DNA of 64,000 bases, from NCBI GenBank assembly GCA_040218735.1, contig JAVJQW010000050.1:224001-288000 (forward strand), read 5' to 3'. This DNA comes from Deltaproteobacteria bacterium. Its GTDB lineage: Bacteria > Myxococcota > Kuafuiibacteriia > Kuafuiibacteriales > Kuafuiibacteriaceae. The notes beneath the pieces are model-generated. The model was given only the letters and a program-made list of their open reading frames with translations, searched no databases and was not told the origin of the DNA. The translations under genes were made by a program, and so were the position numbers. Every line of letters starts with the position of its first letter. The stretch's first letter is position 1. Of the stretch, positions 28,413 through 49,539 are shown piece by piece.

Positions 28413-30611
28413 TCACTTGAAGCGTACGGTCGCTCCCAGGTACGCCCACCACGAGCTCGCCGGAATCTGGCGCTCACCGTACGCGCGCCAGACGGGCAGT
28501 TTTTTGTCGATCGGCACCGCGACAGTCGCCGCGAGCGCGATCTTGTCGTCCAGCAACCGGTACGTGGCGTTGCCGCGCAGCTCGTGGTGCGCGGGGCGGA
28601 CGTACTGGAAGACGAAGGACTCGAATTGGAAGCGTGAGTTGTTGCGACTCTCGCTCATGTACGCGTGCGACAGCCCCACGGTGAGCGGCGTCCACGGCCG
28701 CATCACCAAAGAGGTGTTCACGCGCAGCTCCGGCAGATCGGTGAGGTGTCGGTTCGTGAACTTCAGATCGTTGAACTGCTCGTACCCGTCGAGGCCCTCC
28801 CCCGTCTGGCGACGGTAGGCGTAGCTCACGTTGGTCTCGAGGTAGTTGTCCGCGTCGAGCAGCAGACGAATCTCACCCTCCGCACCGAAGATTTCCTGAC
28901 CCGGGAAGTTCTCGACGTCTCGGAAGTTCAGGTTCGACGTGGGGTCCGGCGCGATGACGTCGTTGGTCACCGTGTAGAACGACGCGACGCGCAGCTGCAC
29001 ACGATCGTGCGGCCGCCAGTCGACACCGAGCTCGACCGCGTTCGTGACCTCGGGCCTCAGATCTTCGTCACCGCGAACGCGGTACCCCGTCGGAGTCAGC
29101 GACGTGTAGTCGTACAGCTCCGCGAACGTCGGCGCGCGGAACGCTCGGCCGTAGAGCGCCTTGAGCGTGAACCGCTCGTGCGGCGCCCAGATCAGCGCGA
29201 TGCGCGGGTTCAGTGAGCTGCCGAAGTCGCTGTATGCGTCGAACCGAAGGCCCGCCGTCAGCCACAACGCATCGAGGAGCGCGACCTCGGCCTGCACGAG
29301 CGGCGCCACCAACGTACGCGTCGCTCCGCGCTGCTCCAACGGGAGCCCGTCGTGGTTGGCGAAGGTGTCGCGACTTCCGTCGGTCGCGAAGTTCTGTCCG
29401 TACGTGAAGCTCGGCAACCAGTCGTGCTCGACCTGGAAGCCGGCGAGCAGCCGCAGGCGATTCACGACGCTCCCCTGGTACTCGCGCGTGAACACCAGGT
29501 GGGAACGCGCCGCCAACCGCATGGCTTCGTACTCGCGACGCCGAATCTTGCCGTCCGCGTAGCGTTCGATCGCCGACACCTCGCCGTCGCCGTTGGCGTC
29601 GAAGAAGTACCCGTCGGGCTGATCTTGGATCCGCTCGTCGACGAGCTGCACGTCGTAGCTCAGGCGTGTTCGGAGCTCGACGTCGTCCGCGATGTCGATG
29701 TCGTGCGCGACGTAGCTCGATGAGATCATCCGCTGCACGTTCGACTCCGGCGTGAGCGTCGCCGACGCGCCGAAGTACGGGCCGTGCCGATCGAGCACGA
29801 ACACCGAACCCAGCTGCACCGTGTCCGCGTCCGCGAACACGCCCGTGCGACTGGCCACGATCTGCGCGAGCCCCGTGGCGAGCGGGAGCGAAGTCATACC
29901 GGGCGTCGCGCCGTACGGTCGGCCCGACGCCGCGTCCTCTTCGACCTTCACCTTCGGACCCGTCGACTCCCGGTACTGACCGAACGTCGAGAGCCGCCAC
30001 TGTCCGCGCCGCGCGCGATATTCGAGGCCGATTCGACCGCCGTACCCGAGCTCGTCGTCGACGTTGGCGTCACCCGCGGCGGTGAGCACACCGACGCTCC
30101 CCTCGTCCGGCGCGCCGCGCGTGACGATGGAGATGACCGCGGAGAAGGCGTTGGTTCCGTAGAGCGCCGAGCCCGGGCCACGGATGACCTCGATGCGCTC
30201 GACATTGGCGAGCAACAGCCGCGGGACGAAGTGTCCGTCGTAGAAGTCGTTGAGGGGCTGACCGTCGAGGGTGACGAGGATGTTGGCTTTGTTCTGAACG
30301 CCGCGGACGGCGACGATCAGATCGCCGAACTGGTCGTCGAGCACGGTCATGCCCGGAACGAGGCGGAGCGCATCGGCGAGGGTGAGGAGACCGAGCTGCT
30401 CGATCTGCTGGGCCGTAATCACGGACATCGTGGACGGCGCACGATCGATCGAGCGCTCGCCGAGGGTCGCCGAGGTGACGCGCACCGAGGTGAGCTCCTC
30501 CAACGACAGGTCCATGAGGTCGTTCACCTCGTCATCCAGGGATTGCGGATCGCCGGCGCCCGCCAGCGCCCATGCGATGGCGAGCAACGGCATGGCTTGC
30601 ACCGTCCTCAT
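28413..30611 (-). CDS. TonB-dependent receptor (YfiR-associated type)
   Basis: LMDLSLEELTSVRVTSA, APSTMSVITA, VERIEVIRGPGSALYGTNAF, GRAFRAPTFAELY, C-terminal YLGATVRFK. Confidence 0.92.
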   Translation of the reverse strand: MRTVQAMPLLAIAWALAGAGDPQSLDDEVNDLMDLSLEELTSVRVTSATLGERSIDRAPSTMSVITAQQIEQLGLLTLADALRLVPGMTVLDDQFGDLIVAVRGVQNKANILVTLDGQPLNDFYDGHFVPRLLLANVERIEVIRGPGSALYGTNAFSAVISIVTRGAPDEGSVGVLTAAGDANVDDELGYGGRIGLEYRARRGQWRLSTFGQYRESTGPKVKVEEDAASGRPYGATPGMTSLPLATGLAQIVASRTGVFADADTVQLGSVFVLDRHGPYFGASATLTPESNVQRMISSSYVAHDIDIADDVELRTRLSYDVQLVDERIQDQPDGYFFDANGDGEVSAIERYADGKIRRREYEAMRLAARSHLVFTREYQGSVVNRLRLLAGFQVEHDWLPSFTYGQNFATDGSRDTFANHDGLPLEQRGATRTLVAPLVQAEVALLDALWLTAGLRFDAYSDFGSSLNPRIALIWAPHERFTLKALYGRAFRAPTFAELYDYTSLTPTGYRVRGDEDLRPEVTNAVELGVDWRPHDRVQLRVASFYTVTNDVIAPDPTSNLNFRDVENFPGQEIFGAEGEIRLLLDADNYLETNVSYAYRRQTGEGLDGYEQFNDLKFTNRHLTDLPELRVNTSLVMRPWTPLTVGLSHAYMSESRNNSRFQFESFVFQYVRPAHHELRGNATYRLLDDKIALAATVAVPIDKKLPVWRAYGERQIPASSWWAYLGATVRFK

Positions 30612-32890
30612 GACGCTGCCCTCCTCGTTGCCTCGTGTGCCGCCTCCGCGATGCGCGTGAGCGTCTCCAGGAGCGCTGCGCGGTCGATCGGCTTCGAGAG
30701 GTAGTCATCCATGCCCGCGTCGATGCAGCGGCCACGATCTTCAGGCAGCGCTTCGGCGGTTAGCGCGACGATCGGGATCGAGGCCCGGTCGTCTTCGAGC
30801 GCGCGGATGGCCGCGGTCGCTTCGTACCCGTCCATCTGCGGCATCTGGCAGTCCATCAACACCAGGTCGTACGCGCCGACCTGCACCGCCTCGACGGCGA
30901 GCCGCCCGTTGTCGACGACGACACACACACAGTCGATCGCCTCCAACATCCGCAGAGCGACCTGCTGGTTGACCTTGTTGTCCTCCGCGACGAGCACCGA
31001 GACCTGACGCCCGCCGTCGATCCGCGGGACCGTCGCCACGCGCGGCCCCGCGGCGATCTCGCCGGTGGGCTCCGCGACAAGAGCATCCGCCACATCACGG
31101 CGACGCGGCGGCGCGACTACGGTGCTCTGCGCCCACGGCCGCTTCGCGACGCTCTCTCCGAGGCGCACCAACGGCACCCACCGCACCGCTTCGAGGTCGG
31201 GGTCCGACGCGATTCGCGCGTCGAGCGCGGCGAATCCGCCGACGGCCGTCGGCGCCACGAACACCGCGCGCGGCGTCGCTACGCCTTCGTCGAGCCACGA
31301 ACGCAGCGCATCCAGGTCACCGAAGCCGACGGCTTCGCAGCCGAGCGAGATGAGATCGTCGAGCAGCGCCTTGCGTGCGACGGCGTTGTCGTCGAGCACC
31401 GCTGCCCACCCGGACCGCAGCGCGCGCATCCCCGTGCTCGACTCGAGAGAGCCCTCCGCCATCGGGAGCTCGACGATGAAGCGGGACCCCTCACCGACGT
31501 TCGACTCGACATCGATGCTCCCGCCGAGGCCCTCGGTGAGCTTCTTGGTGATGGCGAGCCCCAGCCCCGTGCCGCCGAAGCGGCGCGTGTTGGACACGTC
31601 GACCTGCGTGAACGCCGAGAACAGCGCTTCGATCCGGTCCTCGGGGATGCCGATTCCGGTGTCTTCGACGATGAATCGCATCGAACGGCCGTCCGACGCG
31701 CGCTCGACCGCGAGGAGGACGTGGCCTTCATGCGTGAACTTGATCGCGTTGCCGACGAGGTTGATCAGGATTTGACGCAGACGCGTTGGGTCCCCGACCA
31801 GCCCCTCCGGCACCGACGGATCGATCGAGACGATCAGTCGAATGTCTGCTTCCTGAGCACGCGTGATCACCACGTCGCGCACCGCTTCGATCGAAGCGCG
31901 CACGTCGAACGCGATGCTCTCGAAGACCATGCGCCCGGCGTCGATCTTCGAGAAGTCGAGCACGTCGTTGACGACCGTGAGGAGGAGCTCGGCCGACTGC
32001 AGCGCGGTGGTGGCGAGGTCCCGCTGGTCCCGATTGAGGTGGGAGTCGAGGAGCAACGTCGTCATGCCCATGAAGCCGTTGATCGGCGTCCGGATCTCGT
32101 GGCTCATGTTGGCGAGGAACTGAGCCTTCGCGCGCGCCGCCGCCTCCGCATCGTCGCGCATTCGAACGAGCTCGACGTCACGCGCCTGGAGCTGGTCGAG
32201 CATCTCGTTGAACGACCGCGTGAGCGCGCCGATGCCGAGCTCGTCCTCGCCGGTGTAGACCGCGCGGATCTGGTAGTCGCGCTGTTCGGAGATCTTCTTC
32301 GCGGTCTCGACGAGCTTCGCGACGGGCTTCGAGAGGATCGTCCGCAGCCGAGCGGAGAGGAAGTAGACGATGATCGTGAGGATCAGGACGGTGAGCGCCG
32401 CGATGAGGCCGTACCGCTGGATGCGTCCGTGCAGCCGGTCCGAGAAGTCACAGCGCAGGTAGAGCGTGCCGACCTCCTCGTCTTGCGAGTGAATCGTTGC
32501 GCCGTACTCCGCACGCGCGCTTTCGATGGACCAGCCGAGGGCCGGCGGGTTCGGCGGGCACGCGCTGCGTTGGCTGTGCGGGTACGCGCCCACGAGCGCA
32601 CCGTCCCGATTGTAGAGGCACCCGTACTCGATCATGTTGCCGCGCGAGAGCGACTGCATGCCGTCCTCCGCCGCGAGGGCGTCGTCGAACGCGAGGGCCG
32701 CGCTGAGGTGCTCGCCCATGATGTTCGAGACGAGCTCGAGCTCGTCCATCACCGCGCGGCGTGCGACGAACCACTCGTACGCGAGGAACCCACCCGACGC
32801 GAACAACAGCGCGCCCATGGACACTGCGACGATCGCCACCGTGAGGCGTCGGCGAACCGAGGAGCTGTCATGTGTATCGACTCGATGCAC
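30608..32890 (-). CDS. Hybrid sensor histidine kinase (periplasmic sensor, HAMP, HisKA, HATPase, degenerate REC, REC)
   Basis: AALAFDD periplasmic motif, HAMP LTRSFNEML, FLANMSHEIRTP, NLVGNAIKFT, GGTGLGL, DLVLMDCQMP, GMDDYLSKP. Confidence 0.93.
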   Translation of the reverse strand: MHRVDTHDSSSVRRRLTVAIVAVSMGALLFASGGFLAYEWFVARRAVMDELELVSNIMGEHLSAALAFDDALAAEDGMQSLSRGNMIEYGCLYNRDGALVGAYPHSQRSACPPNPPALGWSIESARAEYGATIHSQDEEVGTLYLRCDFSDRLHGRIQRYGLIAALTVLILTIIVYFLSARLRTILSKPVAKLVETAKKISEQRDYQIRAVYTGEDELGIGALTRSFNEMLDQLQARDVELVRMRDDAEAAARAKAQFLANMSHEIRTPINGFMGMTTLLLDSHLNRDQRDLATTALQSAELLLTVVNDVLDFSKIDAGRMVFESIAFDVRASIEAVRDVVITRAQEADIRLIVSIDPSVPEGLVGDPTRLRQILINLVGNAIKFTHEGHVLLAVERASDGRSMRFIVEDTGIGIPEDRIEALFSAFTQVDVSNTRRFGGTGLGLAITKKLTEGLGGSIDVESNVGEGSRFIVELPMAEGSLESSTGMRALRSGWAAVLDDNAVARKALLDDLISLGCEAVGFGDLDALRSWLDEGVATPRAVFVAPTAVGGFAALDARIASDPDLEAVRWVPLVRLGESVAKRPWAQSTVVAPPRRRDVADALVAEPTGEIAAGPRVATVPRIDGGRQVSVLVAEDNKVNQQVALRMLEAIDCVCVVVDNGRLAVEAVQVGAYDLVLMDCQMPQMDGYEATAAIRALEDDRASIPIVALTAEALPEDRGRCIDAGMDDYLSKPIDRAALLETLTRIAEAAHEATRRAAS

Positions 32891-32892
32891 GA

Positions 32893-33423
32893 CTACTTCC
32901 TCAGGTTGGCCGCGAGCGCCAAGAGTTTGGGGTTGAGGGACAGGCCCGCCGCGCGAACGCGATCGAGGTCGACGTTGAAGCGAACCTGGTCACCGCTCTG
33001 GAAGAGCTGGACCATGCTCGGACAGTCGCGGCGGTCCGTGACGATCAGCGCGTCACTGCGTTCGAGCCCGCACACCTTGGGGAGCGGGACGCCGGAGCCG
33101 ACGAACAAGACGTCGCAGCCGGACGTCGGTGCGTCCGACGCCAACTGAGCGACCGCGATGTCGCGGGAGCCGACGCTCCGCTTCTTCAGGACTTCGAACG
33201 CTCGGAACTGGTCGGTGCGACCAATGACGCAGATGCGGAGCGCGCCCGACGCGTGTGCCTTGGACCACCGGGCGTAGCGCGCAAAGTTGAACGTGTACGC
33301 GACCTTGATCGCCTCGCTGCCGTACCCCGAGCGCTCCGCCGCATCGACGTCGAGAGGTCGCGCCACGAGCGAGCAGACAAGCGCTGAACAGCACAGCGCT
33401 ACGAGGTGGGAAGGGCGCGACAA
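32893..33423 (-). CDS. yfiR: YfiR/HmsC-family periplasmic regulator
   Basis: IKVAYTFNFARYARW, CDVLFV, RFNVDLDRVRAAGLSLNPKLLALA. The TTG 33423 start is inferred; the longer ORF-track N-terminus overlaps the next gene. Confidence 0.85.
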   Translation of the reverse strand: MSRPSHLVALCCSALVCSLVARPLDVDAAERSGYGSEAIKVAYTFNFARYARWSKAHASGALRICVIGRTDQFRAFEVLKKRSVGSRDIAVAQLASDAPTSGCDVLFVGSGVPLPKVCGLERSDALIVTDRRDCPSMVQLFQSGDQVRFNVDLDRVRAAGLSLNPKLLALAANLRK

Positions 33424-37929: not shown

Positions 37930-39909
37930 ATGAGCGGCGCGCCGGACGAGCCCCACGTGCCCGCAAGCGCGAACCTCCCGGAGATCACGCTGAAGGCGGT
38001 GATCCTCGGGCTCGTCCTCTCCGCGCTGCTGTCCGCCGCCAACGCGTACCTCGGGCTGTTTGCGGGGCTCACCGTGTCGGCGTCGATCCCCGCCGCGGTG
38101 ATCTCGATGGCCGTTTTGAAGGTCCTCGGCGGAAACATCCTCGAGAACAACATCGTCCAGACCGCGGCGTCCGCCGGCGAGAGCATGGCGGCCGGCGTCA
38201 TCTTCACGATCCCCGCCCTCGTCATCCTCGGGACCTGGGCCGAGTTCGACTACTGGGAGACGACGATGATCGCGGGCTTCGGCGGCCTGCTCGGCGTGCT
38301 CTTCACCATCCCGCTGCGCCGCGCGCTCATCGTCGAGACGCCGCTCGAGTTCCCGGAGGGCGTGGCGACCGCGGAGGTGCTGAAGGTCGGCGAGTCCGGC
38401 GGCGGCGGCGGCATCAAACACATCTTCACCTCCGGCGCGATCGGCGCGCTCTTCAAGCTCGGCGAATCCGGGCTGCGCCTGTGGCACGGCACCATCGAAG
38501 AGGCGCGCTACGCCGGTTCCACGATCCTGTACTTCGGTTCGAACCTCTCCCCCGCGCTCGTCGCCGTCGGCTACATCGTGGGCCTGGAGATCGCGGTGCT
38601 GGTCTTCATCGGCGGCGCCCTGAACTGGCTCGTCGCCATCCCGATCCTCGCGGTCGTCGAAGGCGTGCCGGAGGGCGTCGGCGCCGTGGAGGCGGCGGGG
38701 GAGCTGTGGTCGACGCAGACCCGCTACCTCGGCGTCGGATCGATGGTGGTCGGCGGTCTGTGGGCGCTCGTCAGCCTGCGCAAGTCGCTCGTCGCGGGGG
38801 TGCGCTCCAGCTTCGAAGCCTACCGCCGCATGCGCGACGGCGGCGACGGCGCGACGCTCCGCACCGAGCGCGACATGCCGATGCAGTGGGTCGGCGCTGC
38901 GCTCGTCTTCTCGCTGATCCCGCTCGGGCTGATCTTCTTCCACGTGACCGGCGTGTGGTGGGTCGCCGCGATCATGTCGGTGGTGATGCTCATCGCGGGG
39001 TTTCTGTTCTCCGCGGTCGCGGGGTACATGGCGGGGCTCGTCGGCTCTTCGAACAACCCGATCTCCGGGGTGACGATCGCGACGATCCTGACCTCGTCGC
39101 TGATGCTCCTCGCGCTCCTCGGGCGCGAGAGCAAGGTCGGGCCGGCGGCGGCGATCCTGATCGGCAGCGTGGTGTGCTGCGCGGCGGCGATCGCGGGCGA
39201 CAACATGCAGGACCTCAAGGCGGGCCGCATCGTCGGGGCGACGCCGTTCAAACAACAGATCATGCAGGTGGTCGGCGTGCTGGGGGCGGCGGTCGTCGCG
39301 GCGCCGATCCTCACGCTGCTCCTCGAAGCCTACGGCATCGGCGTCCCGACCGAGGCGCACCCGGATCCGCTGCGCGCCCCGCAGGCGACGCTGATGGCGA
39401 GCGTCGCCGAGGGTGTCTTCGCGGGGGGCCTACCGTGGACGATGGTCGCGATCGGGATGGTCGTCGCCGTCGCGGTGATCGCGCTGGACCAGTGGCTCGC
39501 GCGCCGCGGCAGCACGTTCCGCACGCCGGTCCTCGCGGTGGCGGTGGGCATCTACCTGCCGTTCGAGCTGTCGGTACCGATCCTCGTGGGCGGCCTCGTC
39601 GCGCACCTCGCGAAGCGCGCGTTTGCGAAGCGGCTGGCGGCGGCGAAGGGCGATCAACGCGAGGCGATCGAAGAGGCGCAAACGGAGGGTTCGCGGAACG
39701 GGTTGTTGTTCGGGGCGGGGTTGATCACGGGGGAGGCGTTGGTGGGGATCGCGATGGCGGTGCCGATCGTGTTGACGGGGGACAAGAACGTGTTGGCGGT
39801 GTTCGGGGCGAGTGATGCGGCGTGGCCGGGCGCCGTCCTCCTCGGCCTGGTCGTCCTCCTCACCTACCGCGTCGCCGCCAAGGCCCCGAGGGAAGCAGAA
39901 CGTCCCTGA
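37930..39909 (+). CDS. OPT-family oligopeptide transporter
   Basis: NAYLGLFAGLTVSASIPAAVIS, ENNIVQTAASAGE, FPEGVATAEVL, GSSNNPISG, DNMQDLKAG, APQATLM. Confidence 0.95.
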   Translation: MSGAPDEPHVPASANLPEITLKAVILGLVLSALLSAANAYLGLFAGLTVSASIPAAVISMAVLKVLGGNILENNIVQTAASAGESMAAGVIFTIPALVILGTWAEFDYWETTMIAGFGGLLGVLFTIPLRRALIVETPLEFPEGVATAEVLKVGESGGGGGIKHIFTSGAIGALFKLGESGLRLWHGTIEEARYAGSTILYFGSNLSPALVAVGYIVGLEIAVLVFIGGALNWLVAIPILAVVEGVPEGVGAVEAAGELWSTQTRYLGVGSMVVGGLWALVSLRKSLVAGVRSSFEAYRRMRDGGDGATLRTERDMPMQWVGAALVFSLIPLGLIFFHVTGVWWVAAIMSVVMLIAGFLFSAVAGYMAGLVGSSNNPISGVTIATILTSSLMLLALLGRESKVGPAAAILIGSVVCCAAAIAGDNMQDLKAGRIVGATPFKQQIMQVVGVLGAAVVAAPILTLLLEAYGIGVPTEAHPDPLRAPQATLMASVAEGVFAGGLPWTMVAIGMVVAVAVIALDQWLARRGSTFRTPVLAVAVGIYLPFELSVPILVGGLVAHLAKRAFAKRLAAAKGDQREAIEEAQTEGSRNGLLFGAGLITGEALVGIAMAVPIVLTGDKNVLAVFGASDAAWPGAVLLGLVVLLTYRVAAKAPREAERP

Positions 39910-39953
39910 AATTCGAATTCACCGTTGGCGGCCTTCGCCGATCTCCGCCTCTT

Positions 39954-40745
39954 CTACTCCGACAGGTGCGCAAGCGCCGGCGCATCCGAGCGCACCGGCC
40001 ACGGCACCTCCACCGCCTCGTGCACGTTCACGCCGCGCGGCGTGCCCATGACGTCGAGCATCACCTTCAGGTCCGCGAACTCCCACGCGTAGCGCGACTG
40101 CGTGTACAGCGGGAACGCATCGGCGCTCGGCGCGTCGGGGAGCGGTCGCTTCACCATCTTCGGTTCGCCGTAAGTCTTGGTCAGCGCGTCGAGCGTCGCC
40201 TTCGCGTCGTGCCATGCGGCCTGCGACGTCTTGTGGTTGCGGCGGTACGAGGCGTGGCGCACCGGGTGCTCCGGCGAGTCGAGCACGAAGAGCACACGTC
40301 CCACGCCGTCGCGTTCGCGATCCGCGAGCTGGGCGGCCTTCGTGTCCTCGCAGGAGTAACGAACCTGTGGGTTCTTCTCCATCGGGCTCTTCTTCTTCGC
40401 CGACGCGCTGCTCGTCGCGTCGACCTCGATGCCCTGCGCCATCTTCTCCTCGCGCTCCTTCTTCTTCATCGCGCGCATCTGCTTCATCAGCGCGCGCGCC
40501 GACGTGTCCTTGCAGTCGAGGCCACGCGCCGAGGCGAGGCCCTTCACGTCGTCGAAGGTGCTCTTCCCGACTTCGACCCCGAGCAGCGCCGTGGTCGGCG
40601 CGCGCGGGCCGGGCCCGAGCTCGGCAAAGTCAGGGAGGACGACCTCATCGGCCGCACGACGCATCATGATGCCGCGCCAGCTGTAGTACGCGCCGGCGGC
40701 GACGATCGCGATGACGGGGACGAGGAAGAGGAGCTTCTTCTTCAT
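39954..40745 (-). CDS. Hypothetical protein with N-terminal membrane anchor
   Basis: MKKKLLFLVPVIAIVAAGAYY; typical codon use; lies downstream of the globin gene. Confidence 0.7.
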   Translation of the reverse strand: MKKKLLFLVPVIAIVAAGAYYSWRGIMMRRAADEVVLPDFAELGPGPRAPTTALLGVEVGKSTFDDVKGLASARGLDCKDTSARALMKQMRAMKKKEREEKMAQGIEVDATSSASAKKKSPMEKNPQVRYSCEDTKAAQLADRERDGVGRVLFVLDSPEHPVRHASYRRNHKTSQAAWHDAKATLDALTKTYGEPKMVKRPLPDAPSADAFPLYTQSRYAWEFADLKVMLDVMGTPRGVNVHEAVEVPWPVRSDAPALAHLSE

Positions 40746-40800
40746 GGCGATCTCTTTCGTTTCGTTCGGGGTTCGTTCGGATTGTCGGGACAGGTTGGCC

Positions 40801-40845
40801 CGGAGTCGGTGCCCGGCGAAAGGGGTGCACCGAACACCGACTCCG
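40801..40845 (-). terminator. Stem-loop just downstream of the multi-globin gene
   Basis: cggagtcggtg (40801-40811) and caccgactccg (40835-40845) form an 11-bp perfect stem; no U tract. Confidence 0.45.
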
Positions 40846-40858
40846 AGACCGAACAGGC

Positions 40859-43147
40859 CTAGTTACACGACGCGCTGTCCGCGACGATGTCGGGGCACAG
40901 CGGCGCCAGCGCGTTCACGATCGCCGTGCGATCCGCCATCGTGACCCCCGCCTGCGTCATCGCGTCCACGAGGTGGCCGACGAGCTGGTTGAAGTCCGCG
41001 ATGGTGATCGCCGCGCCCGCGCCGCCCGGCGGGTTCGTGGCGTTCATGTGCGACGACAGCATGTCGCGACACTCGACGACCTGGCCGTTGATCATCAGCT
41101 CCGGCTCCACGCCCGCGCCGTACACACACGGCCCGTCGATCGAGCAGACCTGACGCACGAGGCAGGTGCTGAGTCGGTCCGCGTCCGCGAGGCCGAAGAA
41201 GCCGACGAGCGTCGGGTCCATGACGATGCGCTGGACGAGGTCCGCGACCACCAGGTCGATCGCCGGCTTGCGGCCGACGCGCTGGTAGACCGTCGCGTTG
41301 CTGTCCGGGTCCTCGACGACCGTCGCCACGAAGGGTGCGTCGGTGAGGGCCGCGACGATCGCGTCGATGTCCGCCTGCAGGACGCCCGCGTCGGTGAGCG
41401 CACCGACGAGGTGCCCGGCGAGGTCGTTGTAGTCGTTCTGCGAGATGCCGAGGCCCATGTGCACGGACGTCATGTCGGCGCACGGCTCGATCGTCCCGTC
41501 CATGCCGCGGTCGAGCTCGGTCTCCACGCCCTCGCCGTAGATGCAGGGGCCGCCGGTGAGGCCGCAGACCTGACGCACGAGGCACGTGGTCAGCCGCGCC
41601 GCGTCGACGCTGTTGTTGAGGAAGTAGCCGTTGATGCGCGGGTCCGCGACGACGCGACCGACGAAGTCGTTCACCACCGTGGCGACCGCGGGCTTGCGGC
41701 CGGCGCGCTGGTAGATCGTCGCGTTGCTGTTCGCGTCCTCGACGATCGTCGAGACAAACGTCGGCTCGGTGAGCGCGGAGACGATCGCGTCGATGTCCGT
41801 CTGCGCGACACCGGCGTCGGTGAGCGCGCCGACGAGGTCCGCCGCGAGGTCGTTGTAGTCGTTCATCGAGATGCCGAGGTTCTCGTGCACCGCCAACATC
41901 GACGCACACGGGTCCGCCGTGCCGTCGCCGTCGCGGTCGAGCTCGGGCTCCACGCCCTCGCCGTACACACACGGGCCGCCCGTCAGGCCGCAGACCTGGC
42001 GAACGAGGCAGGTCGTGAGGCGCGCGCCGTCGACCGAGCTGTTGAGGAAGTAACCGTTGATCGCGGCGTTCGAAACGACACGGCCGACGAAGTCACCGAT
42101 CACCAACTGCACGGCGGGCTTGCGGCCGGCGCGCTGGTAGATCGTGTTGTCGCTGTTCGGGTCCTCGACGATCGTGTTCACGAAGGCGGGGTCGGTCAGC
42201 GCGGCGACGATCGTGTCGATGTCCGCCTGCGCGACGCCCGCGTCGGTGAGCTGCGTGACGAGGTGACCCGCGAGGTCCATGTAGTCGTTCGACGAGATGC
42301 CGAGGCCCTGGTGAACCGACGTCATGTCGACGCACGGCTCGGCGGTGCCGTCGCCATCGCGATCGAGCTCCGGCTCGACGCCCGCGCCGTACGCGCAGGG
42401 CCCACCGGTCAGACCGCAGACCTGGCGTACGAGGCACGTCGACAGGCGCGCCGCGTCGACGCGGCTGTTCAGGAAGTAGCCGTTGATGCGCGCGTCCGCG
42501 ACGACGTCGCCGATGAACCCGGCGATGACCGTCTGGATGGCCGGCTTGCGACCGACGCGCTGGTAGATCGTCGCGTTGTCGTCCGCGTCCTCGATGATGA
42601 TGTCACCGAGGGGGGAGATCGCCGTGACGACCGCGTCCACGTCGGAGGCTGCGACACCCGCGTCGTTGAGCGCGTCGACCAGGTGCGTCGCGAGGTCCGT
42701 GAAGTCCTGCGTCGAGATGCCGAGCCCCGCGTGGGAGTCCGTCATGTTCCGGCAGCCGTCCGCGTCCGGGCCCTCGCCTTCGGCGGGGTAGGTCTGCGGC
42801 CCGCCGCTGACGGCGCCGACCTGCTTCACGAGGCAGAGCGCGAGGCGGGTGCCGTTCACGCCGTCGTTGAGGAAGTAGCCGTTGATCGCGGGATCGGCGA
42901 CGACGCGCCCCACGAAGTCCTGGATGACGGTCGTGATGCCCGCCTCGCCGCCGAGGCGGTCGTAGAGCGTGCCGACGACCTCGCCGCCGTCGCGTTCGGT
43001 CCCGCCGTCGCGCTGCGCGGCCGGTCCTCCGTCACGGGGCTCGCCGTCGTCCCCGTCGTCGTCGTCGCCGGAGCAGCCCACGGCGAGCGCGAGCGCGCTG
43101 GCCGTCAGGGCGTTGAATAGAAGTGATCTGGAGCGTTTGCGAAACAT
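40859..43147 (-). CDS. Lipoprotein with five tandem group I (2/2, trHbN-like) truncated hemoglobin domains, 762 aa
   Basis: GGAGG RBS, ATG 43147, lipobox LAVGC. Five repeats: T[LIV]Y.R.G...[IV]..[VI]..F...V..D..IN.YF ... GGP..Y ... M...H..LGIS..D[FY]..L...L...L..AGV, each with the proximal His. Confidence 0.92.
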   Translation of the reverse strand: MFRKRSRSLLFNALTASALALAVGCSGDDDDGDDGEPRDGGPAAQRDGGTERDGGEVVGTLYDRLGGEAGITTVIQDFVGRVVADPAINGYFLNDGVNGTRLALCLVKQVGAVSGGPQTYPAEGEGPDADGCRNMTDSHAGLGISTQDFTDLATHLVDALNDAGVAASDVDAVVTAISPLGDIIIEDADDNATIYQRVGRKPAIQTVIAGFIGDVVADARINGYFLNSRVDAARLSTCLVRQVCGLTGGPCAYGAGVEPELDRDGDGTAEPCVDMTSVHQGLGISSNDYMDLAGHLVTQLTDAGVAQADIDTIVAALTDPAFVNTIVEDPNSDNTIYQRAGRKPAVQLVIGDFVGRVVSNAAINGYFLNSSVDGARLTTCLVRQVCGLTGGPCVYGEGVEPELDRDGDGTADPCASMLAVHENLGISMNDYNDLAADLVGALTDAGVAQTDIDAIVSALTEPTFVSTIVEDANSNATIYQRAGRKPAVATVVNDFVGRVVADPRINGYFLNNSVDAARLTTCLVRQVCGLTGGPCIYGEGVETELDRGMDGTIEPCADMTSVHMGLGISQNDYNDLAGHLVGALTDAGVLQADIDAIVAALTDAPFVATVVEDPDSNATVYQRVGRKPAIDLVVADLVQRIVMDPTLVGFFGLADADRLSTCLVRQVCSIDGPCVYGAGVEPELMINGQVVECRDMLSSHMNATNPPGGAGAAITIADFNQLVGHLVDAMTQAGVTMADRTAIVNALAPLCPDIVADSASCN
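41293..42571 (-). repeat. Exact 426-bp (142-aa) periodicity of globin domains 2-5
   Basis: T[IV]YQR starts at 42571, 42145, 41719 and 41293; domain 1 starts at 42970. Confidence 0.9.
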
Positions 43148-43305
43148 CGTACCTCCTGAGCGTTCGCGTGGGATCGGAGCGGATACGCCGGCCGCTTCGG
43201 ATCGGATCACTTTCGAAAGGACGTTTCGGGTGTGTGCGTACCATTGCCCACCGCGCGTCTTTGGCGCTATGCCCTCCCCGCCGTGTTAGATTCGGGACCG
43301 ACACC

Positions 43306-44655
43306 ATGACCGAAGCCGATCCGGCGTCTGGGCTAGGGCTGAAGCTGGCCCTGACCGCCATCTTCGTCGCCCTCAATGGTTTCTTCGTCGCCGCCGAGTT
43401 TGCGCTCGTCAAAGTGCGGCCGACGCGCATCGAGGCGCTCGCCCGGACGGGCGACAGCAAGGCGATCGTCGTCCAGTCGATCCTGAAGAACCTGAACGCC
43501 TACCTCTCCGGGTGCCAGCTGGGCATCACCATCGCGAGCCTCGTGCTCGGTTGGCTGGCCGAACCCGCGATCGCCAAGCTGCTGGTCGTCGGCCTGCAGG
43601 CGGCGGGCGTCCAGGTCGGGGACACCGGCGTCCTCCACATCGTCGCCCTCGCCATCGCCCTGACCATCGTGACGATCCTCCACATGACGATCGGCGAGCA
43701 GGCGCCGAAGATCTGGGCGATTCAGGAGCCGGAGAAGCTCGCGCTGTGGTGCGCGTACCCGCTCAAGCTGTTCTTCTCGCTGTTCCGCCCGTTCATCTGG
43801 CTGGTCGACCGCATCTCCAGCCTCCTCCTGAGGATGGTCGGGCTGCAGGTCGCCGACGAACACGGCGGCGTCGAGGACGTCGAGGAATTGCGCGCCATAC
43901 TGAGGGCGGCGTCCGAGGCCGGACACATCTCCGGCCGACAGCGCACCCTCGGCGAGAACATCCTCGGGCTGATGCGCCTGGAGGTCCGGCACATCATGCT
44001 GCCGCGCGTCGACGTGGTGTACCTGTCGACGTCGAAGACCGACGACGAAAACCTCGAGATCATCAAGTCGGCCGGGCACTCGCGGTACCCGTTCTGTAAC
44101 CCCGACCTCGACACGGTGACCGGCCTCGTCCACACGCGCGATGTCGTGCGGAGGCTCATCCAGGAGGACACCGTCGACCTCGAGCAGCTCGTGCGCCCCT
44201 TCCCGTCGGTGCCCGACACCCAGCCGATCGCCCGCCTGATCCTCGACATGCAGCGCGGGCAGGCGCACTCCGCGCTCGTCGTCGACGAACACGGAACGAG
44301 CGTCGGCATGGTGTTCCTGGAGGACGCGCTCGAAGAGATCGTCGGCCCAATCCACGACGAATTCGACAACCGCGCGCCGTGGATCGAAGCCAAGGGTGAC
44401 AGCTTCGAGATGGCCGGCAGCGTGCCCCTCCCGGACGCCGCCGAGACCCTCGGGCTCGACCTCGGGACCGAGGAGGACACGATCGGCGGCTTCATCGTCT
44501 CGCGCCTCAAGCGGCTCCCGGTCGAAGGCGACGAGGTCGAGGTGCTCCCGTTCCGCGCGAAGGTCATTTCCATGTCGCGGCGCCGCGTGACGCGCGTGCG
44601 CTTCGAGCGCCTCCCGGAGGAGTCGCCAGGCGCCGAGCCGGTGGCTTCGGCCTGA
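43306..44655 (+). CDS. CNNM/HlyC/CorC-family (DUF21-CBS-CorC) divalent cation transporter
   Basis: LNGFFVAAEFALV, QLGITIASLVLGW..EP, GEQAPK, GHSRYP, VVDEHG, LEDALEEIVG.I.DEFD. Confidence 0.93.
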   Translation: MTEADPASGLGLKLALTAIFVALNGFFVAAEFALVKVRPTRIEALARTGDSKAIVVQSILKNLNAYLSGCQLGITIASLVLGWLAEPAIAKLLVVGLQAAGVQVGDTGVLHIVALAIALTIVTILHMTIGEQAPKIWAIQEPEKLALWCAYPLKLFFSLFRPFIWLVDRISSLLLRMVGLQVADEHGGVEDVEELRAILRAASEAGHISGRQRTLGENILGLMRLEVRHIMLPRVDVVYLSTSKTDDENLEIIKSAGHSRYPFCNPDLDTVTGLVHTRDVVRRLIQEDTVDLEQLVRPFPSVPDTQPIARLILDMQRGQAHSALVVDEHGTSVGMVFLEDALEEIVGPIHDEFDNRAPWIEAKGDSFEMAGSVPLPDAAETLGLDLGTEEDTIGGFIVSRLKRLPVEGDEVEVLPFRAKVISMSRRRVTRVRFERLPEESPGAEPVASA

Positions 44656-44667
44656 GGGACCCGCCCC

Positions 44668-45810
44668 TTGCGGACGGCGAAGCGCACCGCCGCGGTGCTG
44701 GTCGCCGCGTTCGCGGTGTTCCTCTTCGGCTTCGCGGCCTCCCTCGCGGACCGTCTGCTGAACCCCACCTTCGACGCACCGATCGCGACGTCCACGACGG
44801 CCGCTGCGCTTCACGCCTCGTTGCGCGTCGTCGACCTCCACGCCGACTCGCTGGTGTGGGAGCGCTCGCTCGCCGAGCGCGGGACGACCGGGCACGTCGA
44901 CGTCCCGCGTTTGATCGAAGGGCACGTCGCGCTGCAGGTGTTGGCGCTGCCGACGAAGTCGCCGCTCGGTCAGAACTTCGAGCGCACCGAAGACGGGTGG
45001 ATCGATCAGATCACCGTGCTCGGCGTGGCGCAGCTGTGGCCGCTCGACGCGTGGACGAGCCTCGAAGCGCGCGCGCACCTGCACGCCGCGGAGCTCGCGG
45101 CGCTCGACGCCGAGCGGGACGACCTGTTCGTGGTGCGCAACGTTCAAGATCTCGATCGTGTCGGCGAAGGCGGCGTCGCGGCGCTCCTCGCCATCGAAGG
45201 CGCGCACTGCCTGGAAGGTGACGTCGAGGCCGTCGACCGTCTGTTCGCCGCCGGCTTCCGGATGTTCGGGCTGACGCACTTCTTCGACAACGAGCTCGGC
45301 GGCTCGGCGCACGGCGTCGACAAGGGCGGCCTCACGGACTTTGGCCGCGCGGTGGTCGAGCGCATGGAGGCGCTGTCCATCGTCGTCGACCTCGCCCACG
45401 CGTCCCCTGCGGTGATCGACGACGTCCTCGACGTCGTGAAGCGCCCGGTCGTCGTCAGCCACACCGGCGTCCGCGGCGTCTGCGACAACGACAGGAACCT
45501 CACCGACGCCCAGCTCTTCCGCATCCGCGACAACGGCGGCGTCATCGGTATCGGCTTCTGGCCGGCCGCGGTGTGCGGCGACGATGCGGCCGCGATCGCG
45601 AAGTCCATCGCCTACGTCGCCGATCGCATCGGCGCCGACCACGTCGCGCTGGGCTCCGACTACGACGGCGCCGTCGGCGTACCCTTCGACGCCTCGGGCA
45701 TGGAGGCGCTCACCCACGCGCTCCTGGAGCGCGGCATGGACGACGAGACCATCGCGAAGATCATGGGTGAGAACACCCTCCGCGTCCTGCGCGCGTCGCT
45801 GCCTAATTGA
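44668..45810 (+). CDS. Membrane dipeptidase (peptidase M19)
   Basis: DLHAD, GHVDVPRL, IEGAH, THFFDN, DLAHAS, VSHTG, LGSDYDG, KIMGEN. Confidence 0.92.
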   Translation: MRTAKRTAAVLVAAFAVFLFGFAASLADRLLNPTFDAPIATSTTAAALHASLRVVDLHADSLVWERSLAERGTTGHVDVPRLIEGHVALQVLALPTKSPLGQNFERTEDGWIDQITVLGVAQLWPLDAWTSLEARAHLHAAELAALDAERDDLFVVRNVQDLDRVGEGGVAALLAIEGAHCLEGDVEAVDRLFAAGFRMFGLTHFFDNELGGSAHGVDKGGLTDFGRAVVERMEALSIVVDLAHASPAVIDDVLDVVKRPVVVSHTGVRGVCDNDRNLTDAQLFRIRDNGGVIGIGFWPAAVCGDDAAAIAKSIAYVADRIGADHVALGSDYDGAVGVPFDASGMEALTHALLERGMDDETIAKIMGENTLRVLRASLPN

Positions 45811-49136: not shown

Positions 49137-49167
49137 ATAAAACTCCGTTCCGAAAGGTCTCAGCGTC

Positions 49168-49539
49168 ATGAAGTTTCGCCTGCTGCTCACTGCCTCCGCC
49201 TTCGCTCTCGCGCTCGCCGCCACGTCGACCCCCGCGTCGGCCGCCAAGAAGTTCGAGAACCTGAAGGTCCTCAAGGACAACGGGAAAGACCTCGAGAAGG
49301 GCATGAAGAACATGTCCAAGGGCCTCGGCGTGAAGTGCACCGCGTGCCACGTCAAAGGTGACTTCGCCTCCGACGAAGTGAAGGCCAAGGACGCCACCCG
49401 GAAGTTCTTCACCGCCACCGTCGGCAAGAAGGACGGCCGCGACGCCGCGCTCAAGGAGCTGCTCGGCGTCCTGAAGGTCGACAAGCTCAAGAAGGCCGAC
49501 AAGTTCTGGGCCGGCGTCGACAAACTCGCCAAGAAATAG
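49168..49539 (+). CDS. Small basic exported monoheme c-type cytochrome
   Basis: Signal peptide; ENLKVL...M..MSKGLGVKCTACHV..DFASDE; single CxxCH. Confidence 0.85.
   Translation: MKFRLLLTASAFALALAATSTPASAAKKFENLKVLKDNGKDLEKGMKNMSKGLGVKCTACHVKGDFASDEVKAKDATRKFFTATVGKKDGRDAALKELLGVLKVDKLKKADKFWAGVDKLAKK

Follow-up and report, generated by a model that had tools for sequence, protein, structure and literature searches.

What kind of protein is encoded by a bacterial gene in which five hemoglobin-like domains follow one another behind a lipoprotein-type signal, and what could such a protein do? The question is raised by a stretch of 64,000 nucleotides from a Deltaproteobacteria bacterium of the phylum Myxococcota (assembly GCA_040218735.1, contig JAVJQW010000050.1, positions 224,001 to 288,000), referred to here as the window. 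An original prediction, made from the letters alone, had described the product of this gene as an exported, lipid-anchored chain of five group-I truncated hemoglobins (trHbs), and sequence comparison and modelling support that description. The 762-residue window protein is a tandem group-I trHb, predicted to be exported, lipid-anchored and disulfide-stapled, and it belongs to a sizeable uncharacterised family; it is neither unique nor categorically new. As to its role, we favour, with a probability of about 0.4, an envelope-tethered, multi-site and stoichiometric binder of small heme ligands, which would be neither a nitric oxide (NO) dioxygenase nor an electron wire.

Five globin domains behind an export signal

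The whole protein matches the Pfam model PF01152 (Bac_globin) with 124.1 bits (E 4.5e-36), and each of the five domains, scanned singly, exceeds the cutoff of this model, which is 21 bits (Table 1). The five-domain globin architecture read from these matches is far beyond chance. A domain opens with T-[LI/V]-Y at residues 60, 193, 335, 477 and 619, corresponding to window positions 42970, 42571, 42145, 41719 and 41293. At the DNA level, Tandem Repeats Finder reports a period of 426 bp with 3.2 copies and 78% matches. Domains 2 to 4 are the most alike, with 73-77% identity to each other (73% between domains 2 and 3, 75-77% between domain 4 and these two) and 49-52% identity to domain 1. The linkers between domains are very short in the domain alignment.

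Gly-Gly hinge motifs at the AB and EF corners are a feature of trHbs. Domain 1 retains the classical GG at the AB corner (G-G-E-A-G), where domains 2 to 5 have G-R-K-P-A, and the EF motif is G-G-P in domains 1 to 4 and D-G-P in domain 5. A proximal histidine at position F8 is present in every domain: H139 (in DSH), H279 (SVH), H421 (AVH), H563 (SVH) and H700 (SSH), the last followed by a 9-residue insertion. The five repeats with their starts, the five histidines and the GRKPA replacement had all been listed in the original prediction, as had the lipobox and acidic linker described next, and all of them held.

The N-terminus of the protein reads MFRKRSRSLLFNALTASALALAVGC, and its end, LALAVGC, contains a lipobox LAVGC that places a cysteine at residue 25. 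When judged by the lipobox consensus, the sequence shows a basic n-region followed by a hydrophobic core and a Cys-ending lipobox, and Cys25 is predicted to be lipidated and to begin the mature protein. The following 30 residues contain 11 Asp/Glu against 3 Lys/Arg, with RDGG at residues 38, 46 and 52, and residues 1-57 have a predicted local distance difference test score (pLDDT) below 50 in the full-length model. The 762-residue protein is very probably exported.

Table 1. Coordinates of the globin gene's parts and of its neighbours in the window (aa, amino acids)
Feature	Position	Strand	Basis or remark
Shine-Dalgarno AGGAGG	43152..43157	-	read from sequence; 4 nt before ATG at 43147
Predicted lipoprotein signal peptide, residues 1-25	43073..43147	-	translation: basic n-region (RKRSR), hydrophobic core, lipobox L-A-V-G-C
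Acidic Gly/Asp-rich tether, residues 26-55	42983..43072	-	composition
Globin domain 1 (first-type), residues 56-188	42584..42982	-	PF01152 45.3 bits; Mycobacterium tuberculosis HbN, E 1.3e-13
Globin domain 2 (middle-type), residues 189-330	42158..42583	-	PF01152 26.1 bits; HbN, E 3.9e-9
Globin domain 3 (middle-type), residues 331-472	41732..42157	-	PF01152 22.2 bits
Globin domain 4 (middle-type), residues 473-614	41306..41731	-	PF01152 34.6 bits
Globin domain 5 (last-type), residues 615-762	40862..41305	-	PF01152 25.5 bits, C-terminal part only
OPT oligopeptide transporter	37930..39909	+	
263-aa protein, N-terminal membrane helix	39954..40745	-	no Pfam match; 113 bp downstream of globin gene, same strand
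CNNM/CBS/CorC transporter	43303..44655	+	divergent from globin gene
M19 dipeptidase	44668..45810	+	

The coding sequence of the globin gene occupies 40862..43147 on the minus strand, with the stop codon at 40859..40861. The open reading frame (ORF) as such, 40859..43210 (-), opens at an upstream GTG; the ATG at 43147 is the better start, because the AGGAGG listed in Table 1 ends 4 nt before it. The G+C fraction at third codon positions (GC3) is 0.93, which is typical for the genes of this window of 64-71% GC. An identical 762-aa protein (P0002) is deposited as a hypothetical protein of a metagenome-assembled genome of a "Deltaproteobacteria bacterium", and a scan of the protein against NCBIfam returned no family above cutoff. 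An antisense ORF of 715 aa (40973..43120, +) covers nearly the whole gene. It failed the coding-frame filter (GC3 above 0.80 and second-position G+C below 0.60) and is no gene: antisense frames poor in stop codons are usual in high-GC DNA.

A separate observation concerns the insertion that precedes the F helix. In domains 2 and 3 this insertion contains a DRDGDG loop of the DxDxDG type, at residues 262-267 and 404-409 respectively (42347..42364 and 41921..41938, -); the loop is degenerate in domain 4, absent from domains 1 and 5, and present in a minority of family domains. The Excalibur model PF05901 matches the protein over 12 of its 36 profile positions (residues 258-269) with 23 bits against a cutoff of 22, which is not a full-domain match, and isolated domains score 14.6 and 13.6 bits. 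The loop may be a candidate calcium site beside the heme-propionate edge.

Fold and predicted heme pocket

An AlphaFold2 model of domain 2, computed from an alignment of 14 sequences, has a pLDDT of 84.6. Its best matches in the PDB are the group-I trHbs of Paramecium caudatum (1dlw) and M. tuberculosis (1idr), with template modelling (TM) scores of 0.73-0.88 and root-mean-square deviations (rmsd) of 1.5-1.9 A (1.5 A on M. tuberculosis HbN). The top 25 Foldseek matches are all group-I trHbs with query TM scores (TMq) of 0.68-0.76, while the group-II protein HbO reaches a TM score of only 0.51-0.56. The full-length model contains five globin domains at a pLDDT of 72.9, and with a predicted TM score (pTM) of 0.50 its inter-domain geometry is unreliable. 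By sequence, modelled fold and heme-site residues, all five domains are group-I (N-type) 2/2 trHbs.

To name the positions of the heme site, three HbN mutant structures were aligned to domain 1: 2gl3 (TyrB10Phe/GlnE11Val), 2gkn (GlnE11Val) and 2gln (GlnE11Ala). The B10 column, in which 2gl3 and 2gkn differ (Phe/Tyr), falls on a Val of domain 1, and the E11 column, in which 2gl3 and 2gln differ (Val/Ala), falls on a Leu. Since E11 is this Leu, the conserved Cys one residue before it is E10. In this register, the five domains have Phe/Leu at B9, Val/Ile at B10, Phe at CD1, Leu at E7, Cys at E10, Leu at E11, Gln at E14 and Val at E15, followed by a pre-F Tyr, a Cys seven residues before F8, Met F4, His F8, an Ile at FG, Phe/Tyr at G5 and Leu at both G8 and G12. 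The residue set that ligates and packs heme is, as judged from the alignment, retained in all five domains, and it is strongly conserved beyond them: His F8 is found in 285 of 288 homologous domains from 120 proteins, Phe CD1 in all 288 and Met F4 in 281. It is likely that the domains bind heme b, one each via His F8.

Two features set the site apart. Val/Ile at B10 and Leu at E7, E11 and G8 make the distal pocket wholly apolar, the Tyr B10/Gln E11 hydrogen-bond network by which trHbs bind O2 tightly and dioxygenate NO being gone, and the alignments contain an insertion of 10-18 residues ahead of the F helix.

The family and its paired cysteines

A word-indexed search with the whole protein retrieved 144 proteins at E <= 1e-3, and the homologue counts from this search rest on 120 of them. 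HMMER, run exhaustively on 1.84 billion cluster representatives, matched 1550 at E <= 1e-3, of which 268 had E <= 1e-10 and 78 had E <= 1e-30. A domain hidden Markov model was built on the five domains of the window protein, rebuilt on 288 family domains and run on all retrieved proteins. Keeping domains that cover at least 110 of the 142 model positions, and dropping P0002 as identical to the query, yielded 578 domains in 244 proteins.

In these 578 domains the Cys at E10 and the Cys before the F helix occur together in 396 and are jointly absent in 168, a single one being present in 14. A second pair, formed by E16 and the residue after G-G-P, behaves likewise (both in 162, neither in 411, one in 5). 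Domains of the last type have a further pair near the C-terminus, C751 and C761 in the window protein. Every window domain contains an even number of cysteines; domain 1 has one pair (C105 at E10, C132 pre-F) and domain 2 has C238/C272 and C244/C251. Because the cysteines co-vary and the protein has an export signal, these pairs are probably extracytoplasmic disulfides. They had been overlooked in the original prediction.

We define the Cys-type family as the proteins with at least one domain that holds both the E10 and the pre-F Cys. It comprises at least 196 of the 244 proteins, of which 10 have one domain, 154 two, 17 three, 6 four, 7 five (the window protein included), one six and one eight. 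His F8 is present in 418 of their 426 domains and Tyr B10 in one. By our own heuristic, 158 of the 196 have a lipobox-like N-terminus, in which a hydrophobic stretch leads up to a Cys at the corresponding position. Many of the remaining 38 begin inside a globin domain or a linker (for example, P0032, P0059 and P0123) and look like fragments. Where an organism is named among the matches listed, it belongs in 13 of 13 cases to Myxococcota or to the older label Deltaproteobacteria (Polyangia, Nannocystis, Nannocystaceae, Myxococcales). Many relatives are fused to extracellular modules: DUF4394, P_proprotein (the proprotein-convertase P-domain), Fasciclin with DUF4215, Collagen repeats with DUF7151, DUF4399, DUF7282 and Dicty_CTDC repeats. 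No redox or transport module is among the fusion partners identified.

The other 48 of the 244 proteins have a different character: many lack a signal peptide and combine a canonical Tyr B10 with Lys or His at E10, in arrays of up to 11 units (P0141, P0185, P0203). As a side observation, a group of long arrays with 5-11 units (P0141, P0185, P0203, P0241, P0250 and P0214) combines the lack of a signal peptide with Tyr B10 and Lys/Arg at E10. P0214 has Ile in the F8 column of all five units, which may reflect misalignment to the domain model; alternatively, the proximal His may really have been lost.

In a midpoint-rooted FastTree tree of 71 domains from 17 proteins, the support values of which were not inspected, domains split into first, middle and last types, and domain 5 of the window protein groups with the last domains of its homologues. 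First + last is the arrangement met most often; the window protein has three middle domains between its first and its last. The middle domains of a clade formed by P0007, P0008, P0009 and P0011 group by position, and those of the window protein and P0003 are separate from them. Five-domain forms may thus have arisen more than once, for which the tree is indicative only. In the eight-domain lipoprotein P0122 (1336 aa) first-like and last-like domains alternate, a pattern that looks like four copies of a two-domain unit and like a route to long arrays different from that of the window protein. When domain 2 was used as a query at single-domain lengths in a word-limited search, 4 proteins were found among 54 candidates and at least 2 of the 4 look like fragments, which suggests that the GRKPA-type domain seldom stands alone.

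Gene neighbourhood

The genes adjoining the globin gene in the window (Table 1) include none for heme handling, a cytochrome or a reductase. The look-alikes of the 263-aa neighbour in the Atlas are hypothetical-protein clusters only, mostly from Myxococcota. When genome contigs were scanned with the whole protein, none of 600 pattern matches was confirmed as a relative; the five-domain alignment, used in a second scan, led to a single Polyangiaceae locus, L001, which encodes a two-domain lipoprotein. In the comparison of these two loci there is no shared neighbour and no counterpart of the 263-aa ORF after the L001 globin gene; the neighbours of the latter include no gene for heme handling, heme uptake, a reductase or a cytochrome. 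A scan of 39800..43500 in the window found no promoter-like or terminator-like site. With no heme or redox neighbour, unrelated genes around L001 and no such site, the gene context is uninformative on function.

Two more distant features of the window are recorded here. A TonB-dependent receptor (28413..30704, -) adjoins a hybrid histidine kinase (30608..32989, -; CHASE8, HAMP, HisKA, HATPase and receiver domains), and this pair lies about 10 kb from the globin gene with unrelated genes between. A 132-aa ORF (49141..49539, +), just past biotin carboxylase and biotin-carrier genes, matches the model of the photosynthetic reaction-centre cytochrome c subunit only weakly and below threshold (21.4 bits, cutoff 22.4).

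Possible functions

In the reading that we favour, the protein would leave the cytoplasm unfolded via Sec, be processed by signal peptidase II and be lipidated at Cys25. It would fold outside the cytoplasm behind its acidic tether of about 30 residues, and there the disulfides would form: a staple from Cys E10 to the Cys seven residues before His F8, and in domains 2 to 5 a second pair around the GGP turn. In every domain His F8 would ligate a single heme b, against which Phe B9, Phe CD1, Met F4, the FG Ile, Phe/Tyr G5 and Leu G8/G12 would pack, and the array would buffer such ligands as O2, NO or sulfide, or act as a sink for them, its capacity being set by the number of domains. A stoichiometric binder of this kind agrees with the variable copy number and the lack of redox partners. 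NO dioxygenase-type chemistry, in contrast, is disfavoured because the distal pocket is apolar and lacks Tyr B10 and Gln E11, so that the NO/O2 chemistry of classical trHbN proteins, which the original prediction had given as the normal use of such proteins, is unlikely for the window protein. In a published account, trHbs with hydrophobic B10, E7 and E11 are described as tending towards a low O2 affinity that suits transport or storage, while the Tyr/Gln network suits enzymatic activity (PMC11904497). Which ligand would be bound in the cell, and whether the protein faces the periplasm or the cell surface, is speculative.

Several points weigh against this proposal. The lipobox has Ala rather than Leu at position -3. 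The heme sites are read from sequence and from cofactor-free models only, and the E10/pre-F disulfide and the pre-F insertion, which we take to lie at the heme-propionate edge, could alter or block heme entry. Heme b must reach the exported apoprotein, yet no gene for heme handling, a reductase or a cytochrome is adjacent in either the window or L001. A membrane-tethered stoichiometric store holds very little O2 relative to respiration, and heme outside the cytoplasm may be ferric, in which state it binds no O2. Finally, a structural role, or one in protecting the matrix, would be just as consistent with the fusions to adhesion and matrix modules.

The same evidence has been weighed for four other explanations. 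Tandem globins on the surface could capture and hold heme itself, for example from lysed prey, as a reservoir from which iron or heme is supplied. Gram-positive cell surfaces would offer a functional analogue in their tandem heme-binding domains, many Myxococcota are predators, and every organism-named homologue among the matches listed falls in this phylum; moreover, the protein has exported, tethered, heme-type sites in variable number, and a proximal His in an apolar pocket would suffice for heme capture. However, neither a TonB-dependent receptor nor a heme ABC transporter or heme oxygenase adjoins the gene, the nearest TonB-dependent receptor being 10 kb off, and L001 likewise has none. 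Leu E7, Leu E11 and Gln E14 are conserved more tightly than plain heme capture seems to require, and we know of no hemophore with a globin fold. A heme reservoir is therefore rather unlikely in our estimate. The domains could instead have given up heme and serve in extracellular proteins as disulfide-stapled rigid spacers, or as binders of another hydrophobic ligand. The loss of the usual polar distal residues, the gain of disulfides and of the pre-F insertion, and the fusion of tandem arrays to structural modules all agree with this, and non-heme globin families exist, such as RsbR, phycobiliproteins and photoglobin (PMC8717448). The conservation of His F8, Phe CD1 and Met F4 at the frequencies given above, together with the retained pre-F Tyr, is a heme-site pattern that is hard to explain otherwise and makes a non-heme role improbable.

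By analogy with Bacillus subtilis YjbI, a trHb that acts in this way at the cell surface or in the biofilm matrix (PMC9536834), the array might remove peroxides or protein hydroperoxides from surface or matrix proteins in a peroxidase-like manner, and the fasciclin and collagen fusions of its relatives would suit such an envelope antioxidant. YjbI is a group-II protein, whereas the window protein belongs to group I and Tyr B10 occurs only once in the 426 family domains; no electron donor is evident in the neighbourhood, and two to eight copies of a domain are not obviously needed for catalysis, so that we regard this role as distinctly unlikely. The original prediction had named a gas store, an NO/sulfide sink or an electron wire as possible functions, and of these the wire has no support. 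The very short linkers, which may let the domains pack as a rod, would be compatible with a relay through five hemes or with the reduction of periplasmic O2 by cytochrome electrons, and periplasmic trHb domains have been proposed to reduce O2 in cable bacteria (PMC11976967). The protein contains no CXXCH or CXXXCH motif, and neither a cytochrome domain, a cytochrome neighbour nor a redox module among the family's fusion partners was found. Each heme would be buried in its own domain of about 140 residues, at a spacing that, from globin dimensions, is expected to exceed the ~14 A of fast tunnelling; the model, with its low-confidence inter-domain geometry (pTM 0.50), offers the redox chain no help. 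The chance of such a chain appears very slim.

A broader version of the stoichiometric binder can be put forward as a tentative and somewhat doubtful proposal. The poly-globins of Myxococcota, exported by Sec, lipid-anchored, disulfide-stapled and endowed with 2-8 heme-b sites, would then be an unrecognised class of genuine bacterial extracellular hemoglobins that act at the surface or in the periplasm as a high-capacity sink or relay, be it for O2, NO, sulfide, cyanide or heme itself, and the two-domain first + last pair would be their ancestral functional unit. If this were true, bacteria would have, in these lipoproteins, a counterpart of the multi-domain extracellular hemoglobins known from invertebrates. 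trHbs have nearly always been studied as small, cytoplasmic, single-domain proteins, and the Myxococcota family adds an export signal, predicted disulfides, an apolar pocket and tandem expansion. If heme is bound, the bacterial envelope or the cell surface would be a further place of globin chemistry. This would raise the questions of how heme b is loaded outside the cytoplasm, what the ligand is and why capacity should scale with the number of domains. Cultured Nannocystis species have relatives of the window protein, which makes the family open to experiment; in Nannocystis punicea the homologue, P0075, combines two globin domains with a P-domain.

Comparison with known systems

The original prediction knew of no characterised protein with this architecture. 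None was found in the literature either: the search, with subscription journals largely outside its coverage, gave no lipoprotein trHb, no myxobacterial tandem trHb and no characterised family member. The architecture itself is shared, with one to eight domains, across at least 196 proteins. Multi-unit trHbs had been catalogued in silico before (Hade et al. 2017, as cited in PMC7475203), and periplasmic trHb domains are described in cable bacteria (PMC11976967).

M. tuberculosis HbN (1IDR and its mutants) is the best sequence match of domains 1 and 2, with the E values of Table 1, and HbN and the P. caudatum trHb are the best structural matches at an rmsd of 1.5 A. HbN shares with the window domains His F8, Phe B9, Phe CD1, Leu E7, Met F4, the pre-F Tyr and the GGP turn. 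It differs in being a single domain without signal peptide, disulfides or the 10-18-residue pre-F insertion, and in having Tyr B10, Gln E11 and Lys E10 where the window protein has Val/Ile, Leu and Cys. The polar distal network of the enzymatic, high-O2-affinity trHbs (Tyr B10, Gln E7/E11) is absent from all five domains, which bears on functional subtype and is not a criterion of fold. Closer in this respect are the TrHbN-2 proteins, for example HbN of Shewanella benthica (8UGZ; PMC11904497), in which B10, E7, E11 and G8 are hydrophobic as in the window protein. The S. benthica protein has a single domain and matches domain 1 weakly (E 1.2e-3 to 8e-3), and its cysteines, at E16 and F10, are reported to be too distant for a disulfide (PMC11904497).

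Two further comparisons concern trHbs of the cell envelope. B. subtilis YjbI is a trHb active at the cell surface or in the biofilm matrix, but it is a single group-II domain with no signal sequence, and the Tyr/Trp residues that it uses are absent from the window protein; the same paper describes cell-surface YjbI and HbN as both lacking a signal peptide (PMC9536834). The lPHCtX proteins of cable bacteria have trHb domains with a signal peptide, outside the cytoplasm, and their function is likewise a proposal (PMC11976967, which cites Kjeldsen et al. 2019 for these pentaheme-cytochrome/trHb fusions). In these fusions a c-type multiheme cytochrome is joined to one trHb domain or to two, whereas the window protein has five trHb domains, a predicted lipid anchor and no cytochrome.

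With regard to tandem arrays, an in-silico catalogue of multi-unit and multidomain trHbs (Hade et al. 2017, IUBMB Life 69:479) is reported to include tandem 2/2 units and fusions to other domains, features that recur in the window protein's family. Bacterial multi-unit trHbs are assigned to groups T2 and T3 and T1 multi-unit forms to eukaryotes in a review (PMC7475203), and set against these classes the window protein would be a bacterial T1-type lipoprotein.

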